DNA of 64,000 nt from Rhodospirillales bacterium (lineage in GTDB: Bacteria; Pseudomonadota; Alphaproteobacteria; Bin95). This document shows, one piece after another, positions 21,056-64,000 of this stretch. The notes under the pieces are model-generated. The model saw nothing but the letters and a program-made list of their open reading frames with translations. It had not been told where the DNA came from and ran no database searches. The stretch is taken from NCBI GenBank assembly GCA_038143065.1, contig JAYQLI010000035.1, forward strand, positions 832,001 to 896,000, read 5' to 3'. Position 1 is the stretch's first letter. Each line of letters begins with the position of its first letter. The position numbers and the translations under genes were made by a program.

Positions 21056-21191
21056 CTTCGGCGCCCCATCTTCTAGAAACAAAAATCATCTTCCACAGTA
21101 CTCTCGAAAGCTTAATTTCAAAAGCATGATTTAACGTGCCACTTGACCGATAGCTAGCCTCCCCCTATCTATCCGCGCCTATTGGTTAAAA

Positions 21192-21265
21192 GGTGCGGTG
21201 GCAGAGTGGTGATGCAGAGGCCTGCAAAGCCTTGTACAGCGGTTCGATTCCGCTCCGCACCTCCA
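21192..21265 (+). tRNA. tRNA-Cys(GCA)
   Basis: Cloverleaf GGTGCGG..GAGGC-CTGCAAA-GCCTT..GGTTCGATTCC..CCGCACC-TCCA. Confidence 0.96.
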
Positions 21266-21352
21266 ATAGCCAATATGACGCTAAAATTCGTTAAAAAACC
21301 ATAGTTAAAGGTCTCGCCACACGAATAACACACTGCTATATATGTGTCATAT

Positions 21353-21427
21353 TCCGCGGTAGCTCAGTGGTAGAGCAATCGGCTGTTAACCGATCGGCCG
21401 TAGGTTCGAATCCTACCCGCGGAGCCA
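21353..21427 (+). tRNA. tRNA-Asn(GTT)
   Basis: TCCGCGG TAGCTCAGTGGTAGAGC ATCGG-CTGTTAA-CCGAT GGTTCGAATCC CCGCGGA-GCCA. Confidence 0.97.
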
Positions 21428-60302: not shown

Positions 60303-61652
60303 CTAAATTGCGCCAAAAGCTAGCATTGCGTCCGCCACCTTACGGAAACCAGCAATATTCGCGCCCTTCATGTAATCCACGTAACCACCTCCTTGGTCAC
60401 CATATTCGACACAGGCTGCGTGAATGTTATGCATGATGTCCCGAAGCAGCTTTGAAAGTTCTTCTTCTTTCCAGGAAATATGAGCAGCATTTTGGCTCAT
60501 CTCCAGTCCAGAAGTCGCAACACCACCGGCGTTCGCCGCCTTTGACGGAGCGTAAAGAATTTTAGCCTCTAAATAATTATTAATACCGTCTATTGTTGTC
60601 GGCATGTTGGCGCCTTCAGAAACAGCCATACAGCCATTTTTAATCAATGCGGCTGCTTCATCAGCATTTATTTCATTCTGCGTTGCGCATGGAAGTGCCA
60701 CATCACAAGGAATATTCCAGGGCCTTGTTCCAGCATGGAACTCAGCTCCAAATTCAGTTGCATATTCTTCAATGCGCCCGCGCCGTTTCTCTTTGAGATC
60801 TTTAATCCACTGCAAGCGTTCGAGTGTGATTCCATCCTTATCGTAGATGAAGCCGCCTGAGTCTGAGAGGGTTAAAACTGTACCCCCACGGTGGATAATT
60901 TTTTCGGCTGCATGAGTTGCAACATTACCTGATCCGGAAATGACAGCTCTTTTCCCGTCAATTTCATTGCCCTTAGTGTGCAACATGTCTTCGAGCATAT
61001 AAACCGCGCCATATCCGGTAGCTTCGGGACGGAGCAATGAGCCACCAAACTCTCGGCCCTTGCCTGTTAGAACACCGTTAAACCTATTGGTCATTCGTTT
61101 GTACTGGCCAAACATAAATCCAATCTCACGGCCACCAACGCCAATGTCGCCCGCGGGAACATCGATATCTGGACCGACATATTTAGACAATTCAGTCATA
61201 AATGCCTGGCAGAAGCGCATAATTTCAGCCTCTGACTTACCTTTTGGATTGAAATCAGCGCCTCCTTTACCACCACCCATTGGCAGTTGGGTGAGGGAAT
61301 TTTTGAAAGTTTGCTCAAATCCCAAGAATTTTAAAACGGACTGGGTCACCGAGGGATGAAAACGAATGCCACCTTTATAAGGACCAATAGAGTTATTGAA
61401 CTGCACTCTATAGCCTCGATTTACACGAACATTACCTGCATCATCTTGCCAAGTAACTCTGAATGATATTGTCCGATCGGGCTCAGTCATCCGTTCGAGG
61501 ATCATCGCCTCTTTGTAAATAGGCTTATCGGCGATGTACGGCAGAATAGTGGCAGCTACTTCTTGGACGGCTTGGTGAAATTCTGTTTCTCCTGGATTAC
61601 GCTTGCGCACACCTTCCATAAATCCGTTTAAGTCTTCAGAACTGTTGGCCAT
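60303..61652 (-). CDS. gdhA: NADP-specific glutamate dehydrogenase
   Basis: GPYKGGIRFHP, GGGKGG, DVPAGDIGVG, RPEATGYG, GSGNVA. Confidence 0.96.
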   Translation of the reverse strand: MANSSEDLNGFMEGVRKRNPGETEFHQAVQEVAATILPYIADKPIYKEAMILERMTEPDRTISFRVTWQDDAGNVRVNRGYRVQFNNSIGPYKGGIRFHPSVTQSVLKFLGFEQTFKNSLTQLPMGGGKGGADFNPKGKSEAEIMRFCQAFMTELSKYVGPDIDVPAGDIGVGGREIGFMFGQYKRMTNRFNGVLTGKGREFGGSLLRPEATGYGAVYMLEDMLHTKGNEIDGKRAVISGSGNVATHAAEKIIHRGGTVLTLSDSGGFIYDKDGITLERLQWIKDLKEKRRGRIEEYATEFGAEFHAGTRPWNIPCDVALPCATQNEINADEAAALIKNGCMAVSEGANMPTTIDGINNYLEAKILYAPSKAANAGGVATSGLEMSQNAAHISWKEEELSKLLRDIMHNIHAACVEYGDQGGGYVDYMKGANIAGFRKVADAMLAFGAI

Positions 61653-61808: not shown

Positions 61809-62662
61809 CTAGTCAGCCCATTGCTTTTCAAAATCCCACACATCTTCAAAACCCATGGAACGACTGAATTCCATAAAGTCAGCAAGCGGTGCTTCAGCAC
61901 CAATCGAAGAACCTGTTTCCTTTATCTGAGTGTAGACCGACTTGAGCGCTGCACCCACTGCAAGGAAACCAGCTCCGGGATAAATCGCAATATTATATCC
62001 AATACTCTGGTAGTCAGCTGCAGGTAAAACTGGGGTACTTCCGCCTTCAACGACGTTTACCAGTAGCATTGCATCAATTGATGTTCCAATCTTCTCCATT
62101 TCCTCAACGCTTTCTGGACTTTCCACGAAGACGATGTCCGCTCCTGCCTTGGCAAAAGCTTCACCTCGACGAATTGCTTCATCCAATCCGTGCCCTGTAC
62201 GAGCGTCTGTACGAGCTACAATCAGAAAATCGTCAGAGTCACGCGCTGAGACAGCAACTTTGATTTTCTTCAGCATGTCTTCAAGGGGATTACTCGGCGC
62301 ATAGGCGTATGCCCACACTTTTTTGGAAACTCTTGATCTTCGATTTGAATTCCAGCTGCACCAGCACCTTCGTAACCACGAACAGTATGCTCAACATTCA
62401 GTAACCCGCCGTAACCCGTATCACCATCAGCAATCATTGGGGTTTTTGCGATTGAGGTAAAAACCTTAACCCTTTCAACCATGTCTCTGTAACTTGCTAG
62501 ACCGGCGTCAGGAAGACCTAAATGGGAGCCAACTGTGCCGTATCCAGTCATGTACAAGGCATCAAAACCCATAGACTCAGCAATGCGAACAGAAATGCCA
62601 TCAAAAATTCCTGGAGCCGCAATAAACTCACCAGCGGCTAATTTCTGTTTCAATGTCGTCAT
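61809..62662 (-). CDS. Isocitrate lyase/PEP mutase family lyase (frameshift near 62285)
   Basis: YMTGYG, IADGDTGYG, IEDQEFPKKCGH, VARTDA. Confidence 0.9.
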
Positions 62663-62725
62663 TCCATTTCCCCATAGTCAAATTGAGATATTTGATCCAG
62701 AATACCTGAAAAAGGAGAAAGATAT

Positions 62726-63486
62726 ATGTCAGCAGAGATAACTGTTTTTTGGCAGCCTCATTGAACTAGCTGTTTAAGGGTTAAAGAATTCCTCTCGATC
62801 CGTGGGATTGAGTTCAAATCAGTTAATGTTGTTGAGGATGCAGACGGCTTAGCGGAGCTCCGGGCTTTAGGGGCTAGATCTGTGCCAGTTGTATCGCGAG
62901 GAGATAAGTTTGTCTTCGCTCAACTTATTAAAGATGTCGTCCAATTTCTTGATATAAAAGAAGATGTTGGACCAAAACTTTCTCCAGCAGAGCTTGTTGA
63001 AAGGGCAGATTTTATTTGGGAATCTGCAATACGCTATTGCAAACAAATGCCAGATACGTCACTCGACAAGGAATTACCAAATAGACCTCGTAGTTATCGA
63101 GTTCTTATGCATCACATTTTCCAGGTTCCAACATGTTTTCTCGAAGCACGAACTTCTGGCGATGTAATGTCCTATGAACGCCTCGTGGCACCACCTCCTG
63201 AAGGATGCGAGACTTCAAATGGTATTGCTCAATTTGGTGAGAATCTGCGTGCTGAGTTTGCCGCTTGGGCTAAAAACGAAGGTGAAAAGCTTGGGCAAGG
63301 CAAAATGCCTACTTATTACGGAGAACAACCAACTCACGAAGTGCTGGAGCGCACTGTGTGGCACTCAACCCAGCATGTTAGACAAGTAATGTCTCTTCTT
63401 GAGCGAGAGGAGTGGAAGTGGACCAACCGCTGGGCAAAGATGCTATAGCAGGGCTGCCTCTAACTGATAAAGTTTGGGATGATTAG
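62726..63486 (+). CDS. Glutaredoxin-like (UxxC) + DinB-like fusion, candidate selenoprotein (in-frame TGA at 62762-62764; frameshift near 63410)
   Basis: SD AAAGGAG, then MSAEITVFWQPH*TSCLRVKEFLSIRGIEFKSVNV..GARSVPVV in frame with ORF 62882. HHIF and WHSTQH His motifs; C-terminus ..AGLPLTDKVWDD*. Confidence 0.8.
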
Positions 63487-63529
63487 GCCCTCCTATTCAT
63501 CTTAAAGAAAATTTTAGTGCTTCTTAACC

Positions 63530-63577
63530 GCGCTAGCCAAAATCCCCTCCATAGTGGAGCCATTTTTGCGCTAGCGC
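63530..63577. terminator. Long imperfect hairpin between convergent genes
   Basis: GCGCTAGC-CAAAAT..CTCCA-TAG-TGGAG..ATTTTTG-C-GCTAGCGC followed by ATTTTTATTT. Confidence 0.65.
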
Positions 63578-63617: not shown

Positions 63618-64000
63618 TTATAATGGACGTGGTCCTTGTAACATAAGACGGTACAAATACCGCTTTTCTTTCATGTCGTAATCCGGGTTCGCCTTATGCA
63701 ACAAAACTCGATTGTCCCACATGACAAAATCACCTTCTTCCCAACGATGTCGGTATTCATGCGTTATTTGGATGGAGTGCTCTAGAAGGTAGTCAAGAAG
63801 TGGTAACGCTTCTTCATCATCCATTCCAATTATCCGTTCAATACGGATTGGGTTGATGTAAATTGCCTTTCTTGCAGTCTCGTCATGAGTTCGAATTAAC
63901 GGGTGAGAAATACTTTTTCAATTTCAGCCTTACGCTTTTCTGTAAGCCCCACCAACTTTCTGGAACTATGGCTTGATTGATAGACATGCTCAGCTTTAAG
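63618..64000 (-). CDS. TauD/TfdA family dioxygenase, 3' part (frameshifted)
   Basis: HPLIRTHDETARKAIYINP, WEEGDFVMWDNRVLLHKA. Confidence 0.85.

Follow-up and report, generated by a model that had tools for sequence, protein, structure and literature searches.

A glutaredoxin-like selenoprotein with a C-terminal DinB-type domain in a Rhodospirillales bacterium

Surveys of marine microbial DNA have described selenoproteins that carry a UxxC motif in a glutaredoxin-like (Grx-like) setting. In the Global Ocean Sampling data, Zhang and Gladyshev (2008; PMC2398784, Table 2) listed a 'Grx-like' family (pfam00462, e>0.001) with a UxxC motif, comprising 42 selenoproteins and 255 cysteine (Cys) homologues, and the '#Grx-like' entry in their supplement contains the segments VFWQPHUTSC, NRPRSW..LLHHVFQ, ERTVWHSTQHARQ and GLPL. 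That study treats the family as a distant glutaredoxin, and the term 'DinB' appears nowhere in its main text. The Sargasso Sea survey of 2005 (PMC1088965) described a 'Glutaredoxin' UXXC family of ten sequences, which is possibly the same family. Here we analyse a 64,000-nucleotide stretch of contig JAYQLI010000035.1 (assembly GCA_038143065.1) from a Rhodospirillales bacterium, referred to below as the window, in which positions 62726-63486 of the plus strand encode a protein of the same 'Grx-like' family, with no family-level difference from the sequences of PMC2398784. Within this known but uncharacterised selenoprotein family the gene is unexceptional and intact, and its product joins an N-terminal redox domain to a C-terminal DinB/YfiT-type four-helix bundle.

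The second group of proteins to which this gene product is related is the DinB/YfiT superfamily. In the review PMC10950700, BstA and YfiT are described as holding a metal on three histidine (His) residues, and MST as binding mycothiol through its metal, with the mycothiol thiolate serving as the fourth zinc ligand. The four-helix fold and the H...HxxxH pattern are common to YfiT, BstA, MST, the mycothiol-dependent maleylpyruvate isomerase and the C-terminal domain described here, at a sequence identity to the superfamily of only 7-16%. Known DinB enzymes are stand-alone proteins or are joined to other C-terminal domains, and they use a free low-molecular-weight thiol, whereas in the present family a redox domain that contains selenocysteine (Sec) or Cys is fused to the bundle and is predicted by modelling to lie on its metal face.

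The in-frame TGA codon and the reading frame

The segment from 62726 to 63486 (all coordinates are positions within the window, and the gene lies on the plus strand) is one gene of 253 codons, in which the TGA at 62762-62764 (codon 13) is read as Sec and one missing G near the 3' end is restored. Its ATG start at 62726 and its TAG stop at 63484-63486 were read directly from the sequence, and the start is supported by a Shine-Dalgarno-like AGGAG (62713-62717, +), which precedes it by 8 nucleotides (nt). The translation begins MSAEITVFWQPH-U-TSCLRVKEFL..., giving the motif VFWQPH-U-TSC, and it contains both RSYRVLMHHI and ERTVWHSTQHVRQV, the two segments singled out in the initial annotation, whose boundaries for the gene proved exact. 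When table 11 is applied with TGA read as U, frame 0 stops at 63448 after 240 residues, and the +2 frame, which encodes GVEVDQPLGKDAIAGLPLTDKVWDD, supplies the final 25 residues and ends at the stop at 63486. The gene is single-copy in the genome.

A search that used one genome per species returned 147 relatives, and all locus counts out of 80 refer to the best 80 of these. A TGA is found at the identical codon in 80/80 of these loci, and its flanks are conserved, as VFWQP(H/G/A) on the 5' side and TSC on the 3' side. Cys is aligned with the TGA column in the Cys forms of the protein, and the resolving cysteine of the UxxC motif, C16 (62771-62773, +), is invariant in alignments of 62 and of 21 sequences. 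The start codon lies exactly 12 codons before the TGA in 68 of 79 related loci (L055 was left out of this count and one locus runs off its contig), and the products are 251-265 residues long. In an even sample of the class, 23 of 401 genomes carry the gene, or ~6% of the sampled species, 17 with TGA and 6 with Cys. The residue encoded by codon 12 (62759-62761), directly upstream of the TGA, is mostly His (82 of 89 Sec loci), with Gly at 4 loci and Ala at 3; the Cys forms have Trp, Gly or His. The structural model predicts a contact between residue 12 and the invariant Gln of the RQ motif. The proteins deposited in databases are mostly N-truncated (201-240 residues) and start just after the TGA, while the full-length entries of 252 residues carry Cys in the sequence VFWQPWCTSC or VFWQPHCTSC. 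Gene callers thus overlook the N-terminus, and the redox motif is lost in annotation.

Downstream of the TGA, the sequence can form a hairpin that resembles a selenocysteine insertion sequence (SECIS) element (62794-62812, +). It reads CUCGAUCC-GUG-GGAUUGAG and consists of a stem of 7-8 base pairs, which begins 30 nt past the UGA, and a GUG loop, which begins 37 nt past it; this distance is at the upper end of the usual SECIS range. The evidence for the hairpin comes from comparison and not from energy, because the folding of the single sequence is unremarkable: the segment 62760-62830, folded alone, does no better than its shuffles (z -0.95). A scan against Rfam returned no SECIS or other RNA family, only matches at chance level. 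Of 90 Sec loci across the family, 85 retain the six core pairs in full and the remaining 5 retain five of them, and the GUG loop is present in 89/89 loci. In 6/6 Cys loci the stem is absent, with 1-3 of the six pairs kept and other residues encoded at these positions. Among 30 diverse Sec loci, 93.3% of the pair cells are standard, as compared to 14-60% when the 3' partner is slid, and this pairing value was reached by 0 of 500 shuffles. The third positions of the TCG, GTC and CGT codons within the hairpin, at which changes would be synonymous, are invariant in alignment A2, and compensatory changes occur, UA being replaced by GC in 2 of the 30 sequences and a variant being present in L113. 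Insertion of Sec at the UGA with the help of this conserved downstream hairpin is thus strongly supported by the comparison of related loci.

The genome also encodes the machinery for Sec. Its profile scores for selA (496 bits), selB (435 bits), selD (280 bits) and the Sec tRNA (71.5 bits) are all above their cut-offs; selA and selB are adjacent and lie ~300 kb from the gene, and the Sec tRNA is at C35:2209072-2209164. Outside the window, the selA match (G000:C35:594751-596061, locus L001) contains one internal TAA, which is probably another assembly error and not the mark of a broken gene. Within the window, the Sec tRNA model gives two sub-threshold matches, at 21191-21262 and 21352-21424 on the plus strand (33.9 and 30.4 bits), which are most likely ordinary tRNA genes.

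A literal reading under table 11, with its TGA at codon 13 and its shift of frame at 63409, would make the gene a decaying copy, that is, a pseudogene with an early stop and a frameshift near the 3' end. We consider this scarcely credible. The TGA is the conserved Sec codon of the family, as described above, and it shows no variant letter in the contigs of four public sequencing runs (4/4), which comprise an estuary metagenome (>99% identity) and, from salt marsh, one metagenome and two RNA libraries. The frame breaks at a GG run (63409-63410, +) that should read GGG: homologues, including P0002 (98% identical), are uninterrupted and continue as ...LLEREGVKVDQPLGKDAIAGLPLTDKVWDD, and therefore one G is lacking in the window. 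An extra G behind 63408 is present in the contigs of all four independent runs (2 DNA and 2 RNA libraries, compared over 62650-63560); the presence of the gene in contigs of the two RNA libraries is no proof of its transcription. Furthermore, alignment of the window's own contig with L002, a locus that is 96.5% identical, revealed 12 gap events in 6.2 kb. In every one of them it is the own contig that lacks bases; ten fall in single-base runs, and the other two in a CT repeat and at a lone base. Both this gap pattern and the G found in the contigs of every run mark the frame break as an assembly artefact, and the gene is intact and broken only in this assembly.

Missing bases also split both neighbouring genes. 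A gene of the PEP-mutase/isocitrate-lyase family (61809-62662, -) has a one-base deletion at 62285, and a TauD-family gene (63618 onward, -) has one at 63914, each in a single-base run as judged against L002. The assembly appears to under-call single-base runs throughout, and other apparent pseudogenes in this genome are to be distrusted.

Domain composition and the predicted interface

The N-terminal domain (residues 2-78; 62729-62959, +) has a thioredoxin fold of the NrdH/BC3987/Grx-like type, as judged from its Pfam and fold matches. The window protein matches Glutaredoxin (PF00462) over residues 5-63 with an E-value of 1.7e-10 and 41.4 bits (cut-off 22.9), and the same match is found in 62/62 full-length members scanned singly. 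Residues 2-78 of the model superimpose on BC3987 (3zit) with a Z-score of 13.4, a root-mean-square deviation (rmsd) of 1.9 and 31% identity over 77 aligned residues, and they give Z-scores of 12.0 to cGrx1 (7c10) and 11.2 to NrdH (1h75); when the whole protein was searched by sequence against solved structures, small redoxins were the only matches. With NrdH-redoxin, YruB, BC3987 and the small dithiol glutaredoxins this domain shares the thioredoxin fold (Z 11-13.4, 25-31% identity), a cis-Pro loop (SVP) and, after strand 1, a motif of the CxxC type. It scores far below the NCBIfam cut-offs for NrdH and YruB (NrdH-redoxin, TIGR02194 and NF007657, 40.9 bits versus 85.75 and 30.2 versus 131; YruB, 40.1 versus 88.55), and its matches to other Grx-like NCBIfam families are sub-threshold as well; in addition, its motif is U/C-T/S-S-C, and the domain was free-standing in none of 16 diverse representatives of the family. 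The Uxx-star Grx-like selenoproteins (NF041212, NF041114 and NF041211) are likewise small Grx-like folds that use Sec, and the present protein is below their cut-off (29.5 versus 66). Their Sec is located three residues before the C-terminus, unlike the Sec in the N-terminal redox motif described here.

The C-terminal domain (residues 82-237; 62969-63435, +, its end being shifted by the missing base) is assigned to the DinB/YfiT four-helix bundles because of the Pfam matches of its relatives and because of its fold, rather than on the window sequence itself. When the full-length members were scanned singly, PF12867 (DinB_2) was matched by 55/62 (best E 6.5e-9) and PF05163 (DinB) by 28/62, and in a scan of six single members the DinB_2 cut-off of 24.8 bits was exceeded by 6/6; a relative that is 98% identical to the window protein gave no DinB Pfam match at E<=0.01. 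An AlphaFold 2 model of the unbroken L002 protein (98% identical; 62-row alignment) has a predicted local distance difference test (pLDDT) value of 94.5 and a predicted template-modelling score (pTM) of 0.90. Residues 82-237 of this model superimpose on DR0053 (6iz2) with a Z-score of 15.6 and an rmsd of 2.5 over 144/144 residues. Other matches are to 3di5 (Z 14.9), MDMPI (2nsg, 13.1), YfiT (1rxq, 12.9), MST (8f5v, 12.4) and BstA (5wk0, 9.9), and, besides 6iz2, more than 15 DinB-family structures align at Z 10-15 over residues 82-240. Helical bundles can score Z ~13 by chance; in this case full-length coverage and Pfam agree with the superpositions. A profile search of solved structures with the C-terminal domain found no meaningful relative by sequence, and the domain is a structurally unsampled DinB subfamily.

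Three His residues of this bundle are putative metal ligands: H130 (63113-63115, +), which lies in an MHH segment whose preceding H129 varies among H, F, Y and C, and the pair H213-x-x-x-H217 (63362-63376, +) in the segment WHSTQH. All three are invariant in the 62 sequences and in a set of 21 sequences that extends down to 35% identity, and their spacing follows the H...HxxxH pattern. The residues invariant in the 62 sequences also include W9, Q10, P11, U/C13, S15, C16, R120, P121, R122, P157, P158, Y197, G199, H204, R209, W212, R219 and Q220. In the 21-sequence set, C13, S15, C16, E208, R209, W212, R219 and Q220 are still invariant along with the three His residues (L002 numbering), while H129 and H204 are lost. 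The motifs NRPRS, TYYG and ERTxWH..QH.RQ look subfamily-specific on a comparison made within the family, across which they are kept.

To model how the two domains meet, a natural Cys form of the protein (P0017), which over residues 1-228 is 61% identical to the window protein, was cut into two parts, residues 1-80 and 81-252, and these were folded together with Zn. The interface score was 0.84, versus 0.00 for the best of 3 controls, a mark attained by 116/157 solved complexes and 2/215 mismatched pairs, although for an artificially cut Cys homologue folded from a custom alignment with the ligand along this calibration is only rough. Between runs, at least 98% of the contacts agree, and the pLDDT of the partner is at least 90. 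In the P0017 model, the Grx side of the interface is formed by the CxxC loop (residues 9-18), residues 51-52 before the cis-Pro and residues 63-70, and the DinB side is formed by NRPRS (117-122), TYYG (195-198), R208, W211, H212, Q215, H216 and Q219. T14 is predicted to contact W211, H212, Q215 and H216, and T14 and S15 are placed against residues 212 and 216, which correspond to H213 and H217 of the window protein. The split model is consistent with the high pTM of the single-chain model, and the residues that are invariant across 35-98% identity coincide with those of the interface. Nearly all invariant residues are predicted to line one pocket at the domain boundary. The two domains are modelled as a single compact unit, with the UxxC loop and the groove in which redox domains usually bind their substrate set against the HxxxH helix and the invariant NRPRS and TYYG segments. 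These models bear out much of what the initial annotation had put forward. It had described a glutaredoxin fused to a DinB-like domain with an H...HxxxH triad, and the bundle is modelled with high confidence, superimposes best on 6iz2 and is recognised as DinB_2 in most members, with the putative triad being invariant; it had held that a C-terminal domain that did not model as a DinB bundle would overturn this view, and a four-helix DinB/YfiT fold is what the modelling produced. The separation of the UxxC site from the His triad, which it had singled out for inspection, appears as a predicted contact between the UxxC loop and the HxxxH helix.

The order of domains is the same in glutathione S-transferases (GSTs) and in glutaredoxin 2 (GrxB), where an all-helical domain follows a thioredoxin fold and the two jointly make up one active site. 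A GST-like function therefore has to be considered, in which the Grx domain would do no more than hold glutathione, as the N-terminal domain does in these proteins, while electrophile binding would fall to the DinB bundle and activation of glutathione for conjugation to the metal. Most hosts are labelled Pseudomonadota, which are expected to make glutathione. Foldseek searches with the whole chain return GSTs that have this order in common with it, and weak Pfam matches to GST_N_3 and to MST occur in one member each. The DinB superfamily itself includes S-transferases, according to a reference cited in PMC10950700. However, the helical part is a DinB bundle, unlike that of GSTs and GrxB, and the GST superpositions are poor (rmsd 13-16 Å, template-modelling score ~0.3), so that the Foldseek matches were set aside, the domain order alone being common; the GrxB model gives 22.9 bits for the present protein versus a cut-off of 186.65. 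The nearest relatives of the N-terminal domain are NrdH, YruB and BC3987, which use thioredoxin reductase rather than glutathione. The glutathione-binding signature consists of a TVP loop and a GG..DD stretch; the present domain has an SVP loop, and VFAQ stands after strand 4 in place of GG..DD, with the stretch 63-70 predicted to be buried against the DinB domain. Finally, the invariant second Cys and the use of Sec suggest a catalytic redox pair and not a mere binding site. On this balance, we regard a GST-like function as unlikely.

Proposed chemistry at the domain boundary

We propose instead that the protein is a self-contained DinB metalloenzyme, which would use its own selenolate at the metal and resolve the resulting adduct with C16, and we give this reading an even chance. 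In such an enzyme, the selenolate of the protein would take the place that mycothiol or bacillithiol has at the metal of DinB S-transferases. U13 would attack a small substrate held at the metal and at an arginine-rich interface (R120, R122, R209 and R219), C16 would resolve the Se-adduct to a selenenylsulfide and free the reduced or cleaved product, and the Se-S bond would be re-reduced by the thioredoxin or glutathione system of the cell. The substrate is probably anionic, because four invariant arginines are located at the interface, and recycling by thioredoxin rather than by glutathione is suggested because the domain is NrdH-like and lacks the GG..DD stretch. A more specific form of this proposal is possible, though we lean against it: a new type of enzyme in which a tethered Sec, delivered to a His3-metal site by an NrdH-like domain, would replace the diffusible thiol (mycothiol, bacillithiol or glutathione) of a DinB metalloenzyme, which would act on an anionic electrophile or oxyanion as a reductase or lyase recycled by thioredoxin.

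Several points weigh against the metalloenzyme reading. The window protein has no DinB Pfam match at E<=1, and metal binding is suggested by the conserved His residues and the fold. The rough calibration of the split model also counts here, and the closeness of the UxxC motif and the His cluster is one of predicted contacts. The open literature searched yielded no biochemical datum on any member of the family. Sec deprotonates without a metal, which leaves the role of the metal puzzling, and the gene neighbourhoods are diverse (the commonest neighbouring family, an amidase, occurs at 10/80 loci), so that no particular substrate is favoured. Moreover, an invariant UxxC motif, while suited to a redox cycle, would be just as well explained as a pair of additional metal ligands.

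This last point leads to a different function, in which U13 and C16 would be ligands of the His3 metal and the protein would act as a metal or redox sensing switch, a metal(loid) chaperone or a zinc-redox switch. The predicted contact of the UxxC loop with the HxxxH helix agrees with such an arrangement. CxxC and UxxC motifs frequently serve as metal ligands, Table 1 of PMC13188914 includes several selenoproteins that bind metal, and the fourth zinc ligand of MST is, as described in the introduction, a thiolate. However, the further invariant residues of the interface (R120, P121, R122, Y197, G199, R209, W212, R219 and Q220) resemble a substrate pocket, and no conserved metal-transport or regulator genes are found nearby. 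We therefore judge a role of the motif in metal coordination to be quite improbable, and we retain the proposed selenolate-dependent metalloenzyme as the working model.

Gene neighbourhood, distribution and significance

No conserved neighbour was found among the 80 loci, with L055 again left out of the comparison. After the amidase, the families most often encountered are PEP-mutase/isocitrate lyase, selA and selB (9 loci each) and a ferric-reductase-like flavoprotein (6 loci), while PhyH, isochorismatase, FMO-like, SDR, DsbA and DUF1223 neighbours are present at a few loci each. The PEP-mutase/isocitrate-lyase neighbour belongs to the near relatives of the window and lies on the opposite strand. 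In the window and its closest relatives, the gene is flanked by this divergent gene and by gdhA upstream, and by the TauD-family gene downstream. The gdhA product, an NADP-type glutamate dehydrogenase of 449 residues (60303-61652, -), is encoded two genes upstream, in synteny with the closest relatives; its homologue in L007 carries ELFV_dehydrog domains. A terminator-like hairpin with a T-rich tail (63547-63569, +) lies ~60 nt past the stop codon of the selenoprotein gene, although the consensus scan that located it gave 3 sites versus 0.8 expected, which is weak evidence. Inspection of homologous neighbourhoods, which the initial annotation had recommended, therefore revealed a diverse context with no consistent partner. 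Its suggestion that the protein could serve thiol conjugation or deconjugation, or the detoxification of metalloids or electrophiles, is not demonstrated by any of these results: the Grx domain is of the NrdH/BC3987 type and lacks the GG..DD stretch, and the gene context varies.

At 9 of the 80 loci, selA and selB are located directly downstream on the same strand, and in 7 of these 9 a PrdB/GrdB-like selenoprotein gene is located directly upstream. This linkage could point to a role in selenium metabolism, such as the handling of reduced selenium or its delivery for selenophosphate synthesis. It is confined to one related group, mostly labelled Hyphomicrobiaceae, in which co-inheritance would give the same pattern, and in the window's genome selA and selB are far from the gene, as noted above. 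Among the genomes checked, selA was detected in 5/5 other Sec-form genomes and 3/5 Cys-form genomes, and the two Cys-form genomes in which it was not detected are both listed as 100% complete; forms of the protein thus occur where no selA was detected, and a function in selenium metabolism is very improbable. The island itself is seen at L025:4691-10205, where a PrdB/GrdB-like gene, the Grx-DinB gene, selA and selB lie on one strand, and it recurs, in part, at L015, L020, L022, L034, L040, L046 and L069, mostly in metagenome-assembled genomes labelled Hyphomicrobiaceae. The PrdB/GrdB-like selenoprotein has 406 residues and the motif VPI-U-PFC with one in-frame TGA, so that it appears as two open reading frames under table 11.

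The family is large. One search at E<=0.001 gave 2406 relatives; with a C-terminal domain profile, 740 representative clusters at 50% identity were recovered, 483 of them at E<=1e-10. Almost all of these clusters are Grx-fused or N-truncated, and a few forms of ~170 residues begin at the DinB domain: of 16 diverse representatives scanned, 11 have the Grx domain, 4 are such DinB-start forms of ~170 residues and 1 is truncated. In a single representative, P0253 (721 residues), MmgE/PrpD, with both its N- and its C-terminal domain, is joined to Grx and DinB in a triple fusion, which hints at a possible link to di- or tricarboxylic-acid metabolism. A connection of the family with organic-acid metabolism was nevertheless set aside, since one fusion protein and a PEP-mutase neighbour are too thin a basis for it.

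The initial annotation had also stated that no characterized enzyme with this architecture was known. We found no characterised Grx-DinB member in the literature searched, from which subscription journals were largely absent, and in this respect the statement stands; the novelty that it implied was overstated, as the family was reported in PMC2398784 and automatic protein-atlas cluster names for a Cys-form homologue already pair PF00462 with PF12867 (Grx and DinB_2). The selenoprotein literature searched does not mention a DinB domain in the Grx-like selenoprotein, and Table 1 of a 2026 inventory of 119 selenoprotein families (PMC13188914) has no Grx-DinB entry.

As regards the window itself, the finding is a modest one, an unexceptional member of its family with an apparent frameshift that stems from an assembly error. 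What is new relative to the open literature searched is that an abundant Grx-like selenoprotein is a two-domain DinB protein, together with the prediction, from modelling, that its Sec would be placed on the DinB metal site. Most of the sampled members use Sec. If the proposed mechanism is true, this would be the first DinB enzyme with a built-in nucleophile; for one of the more abundant selenoproteins of the sea, the model offers a hypothesis concrete enough to be tested.

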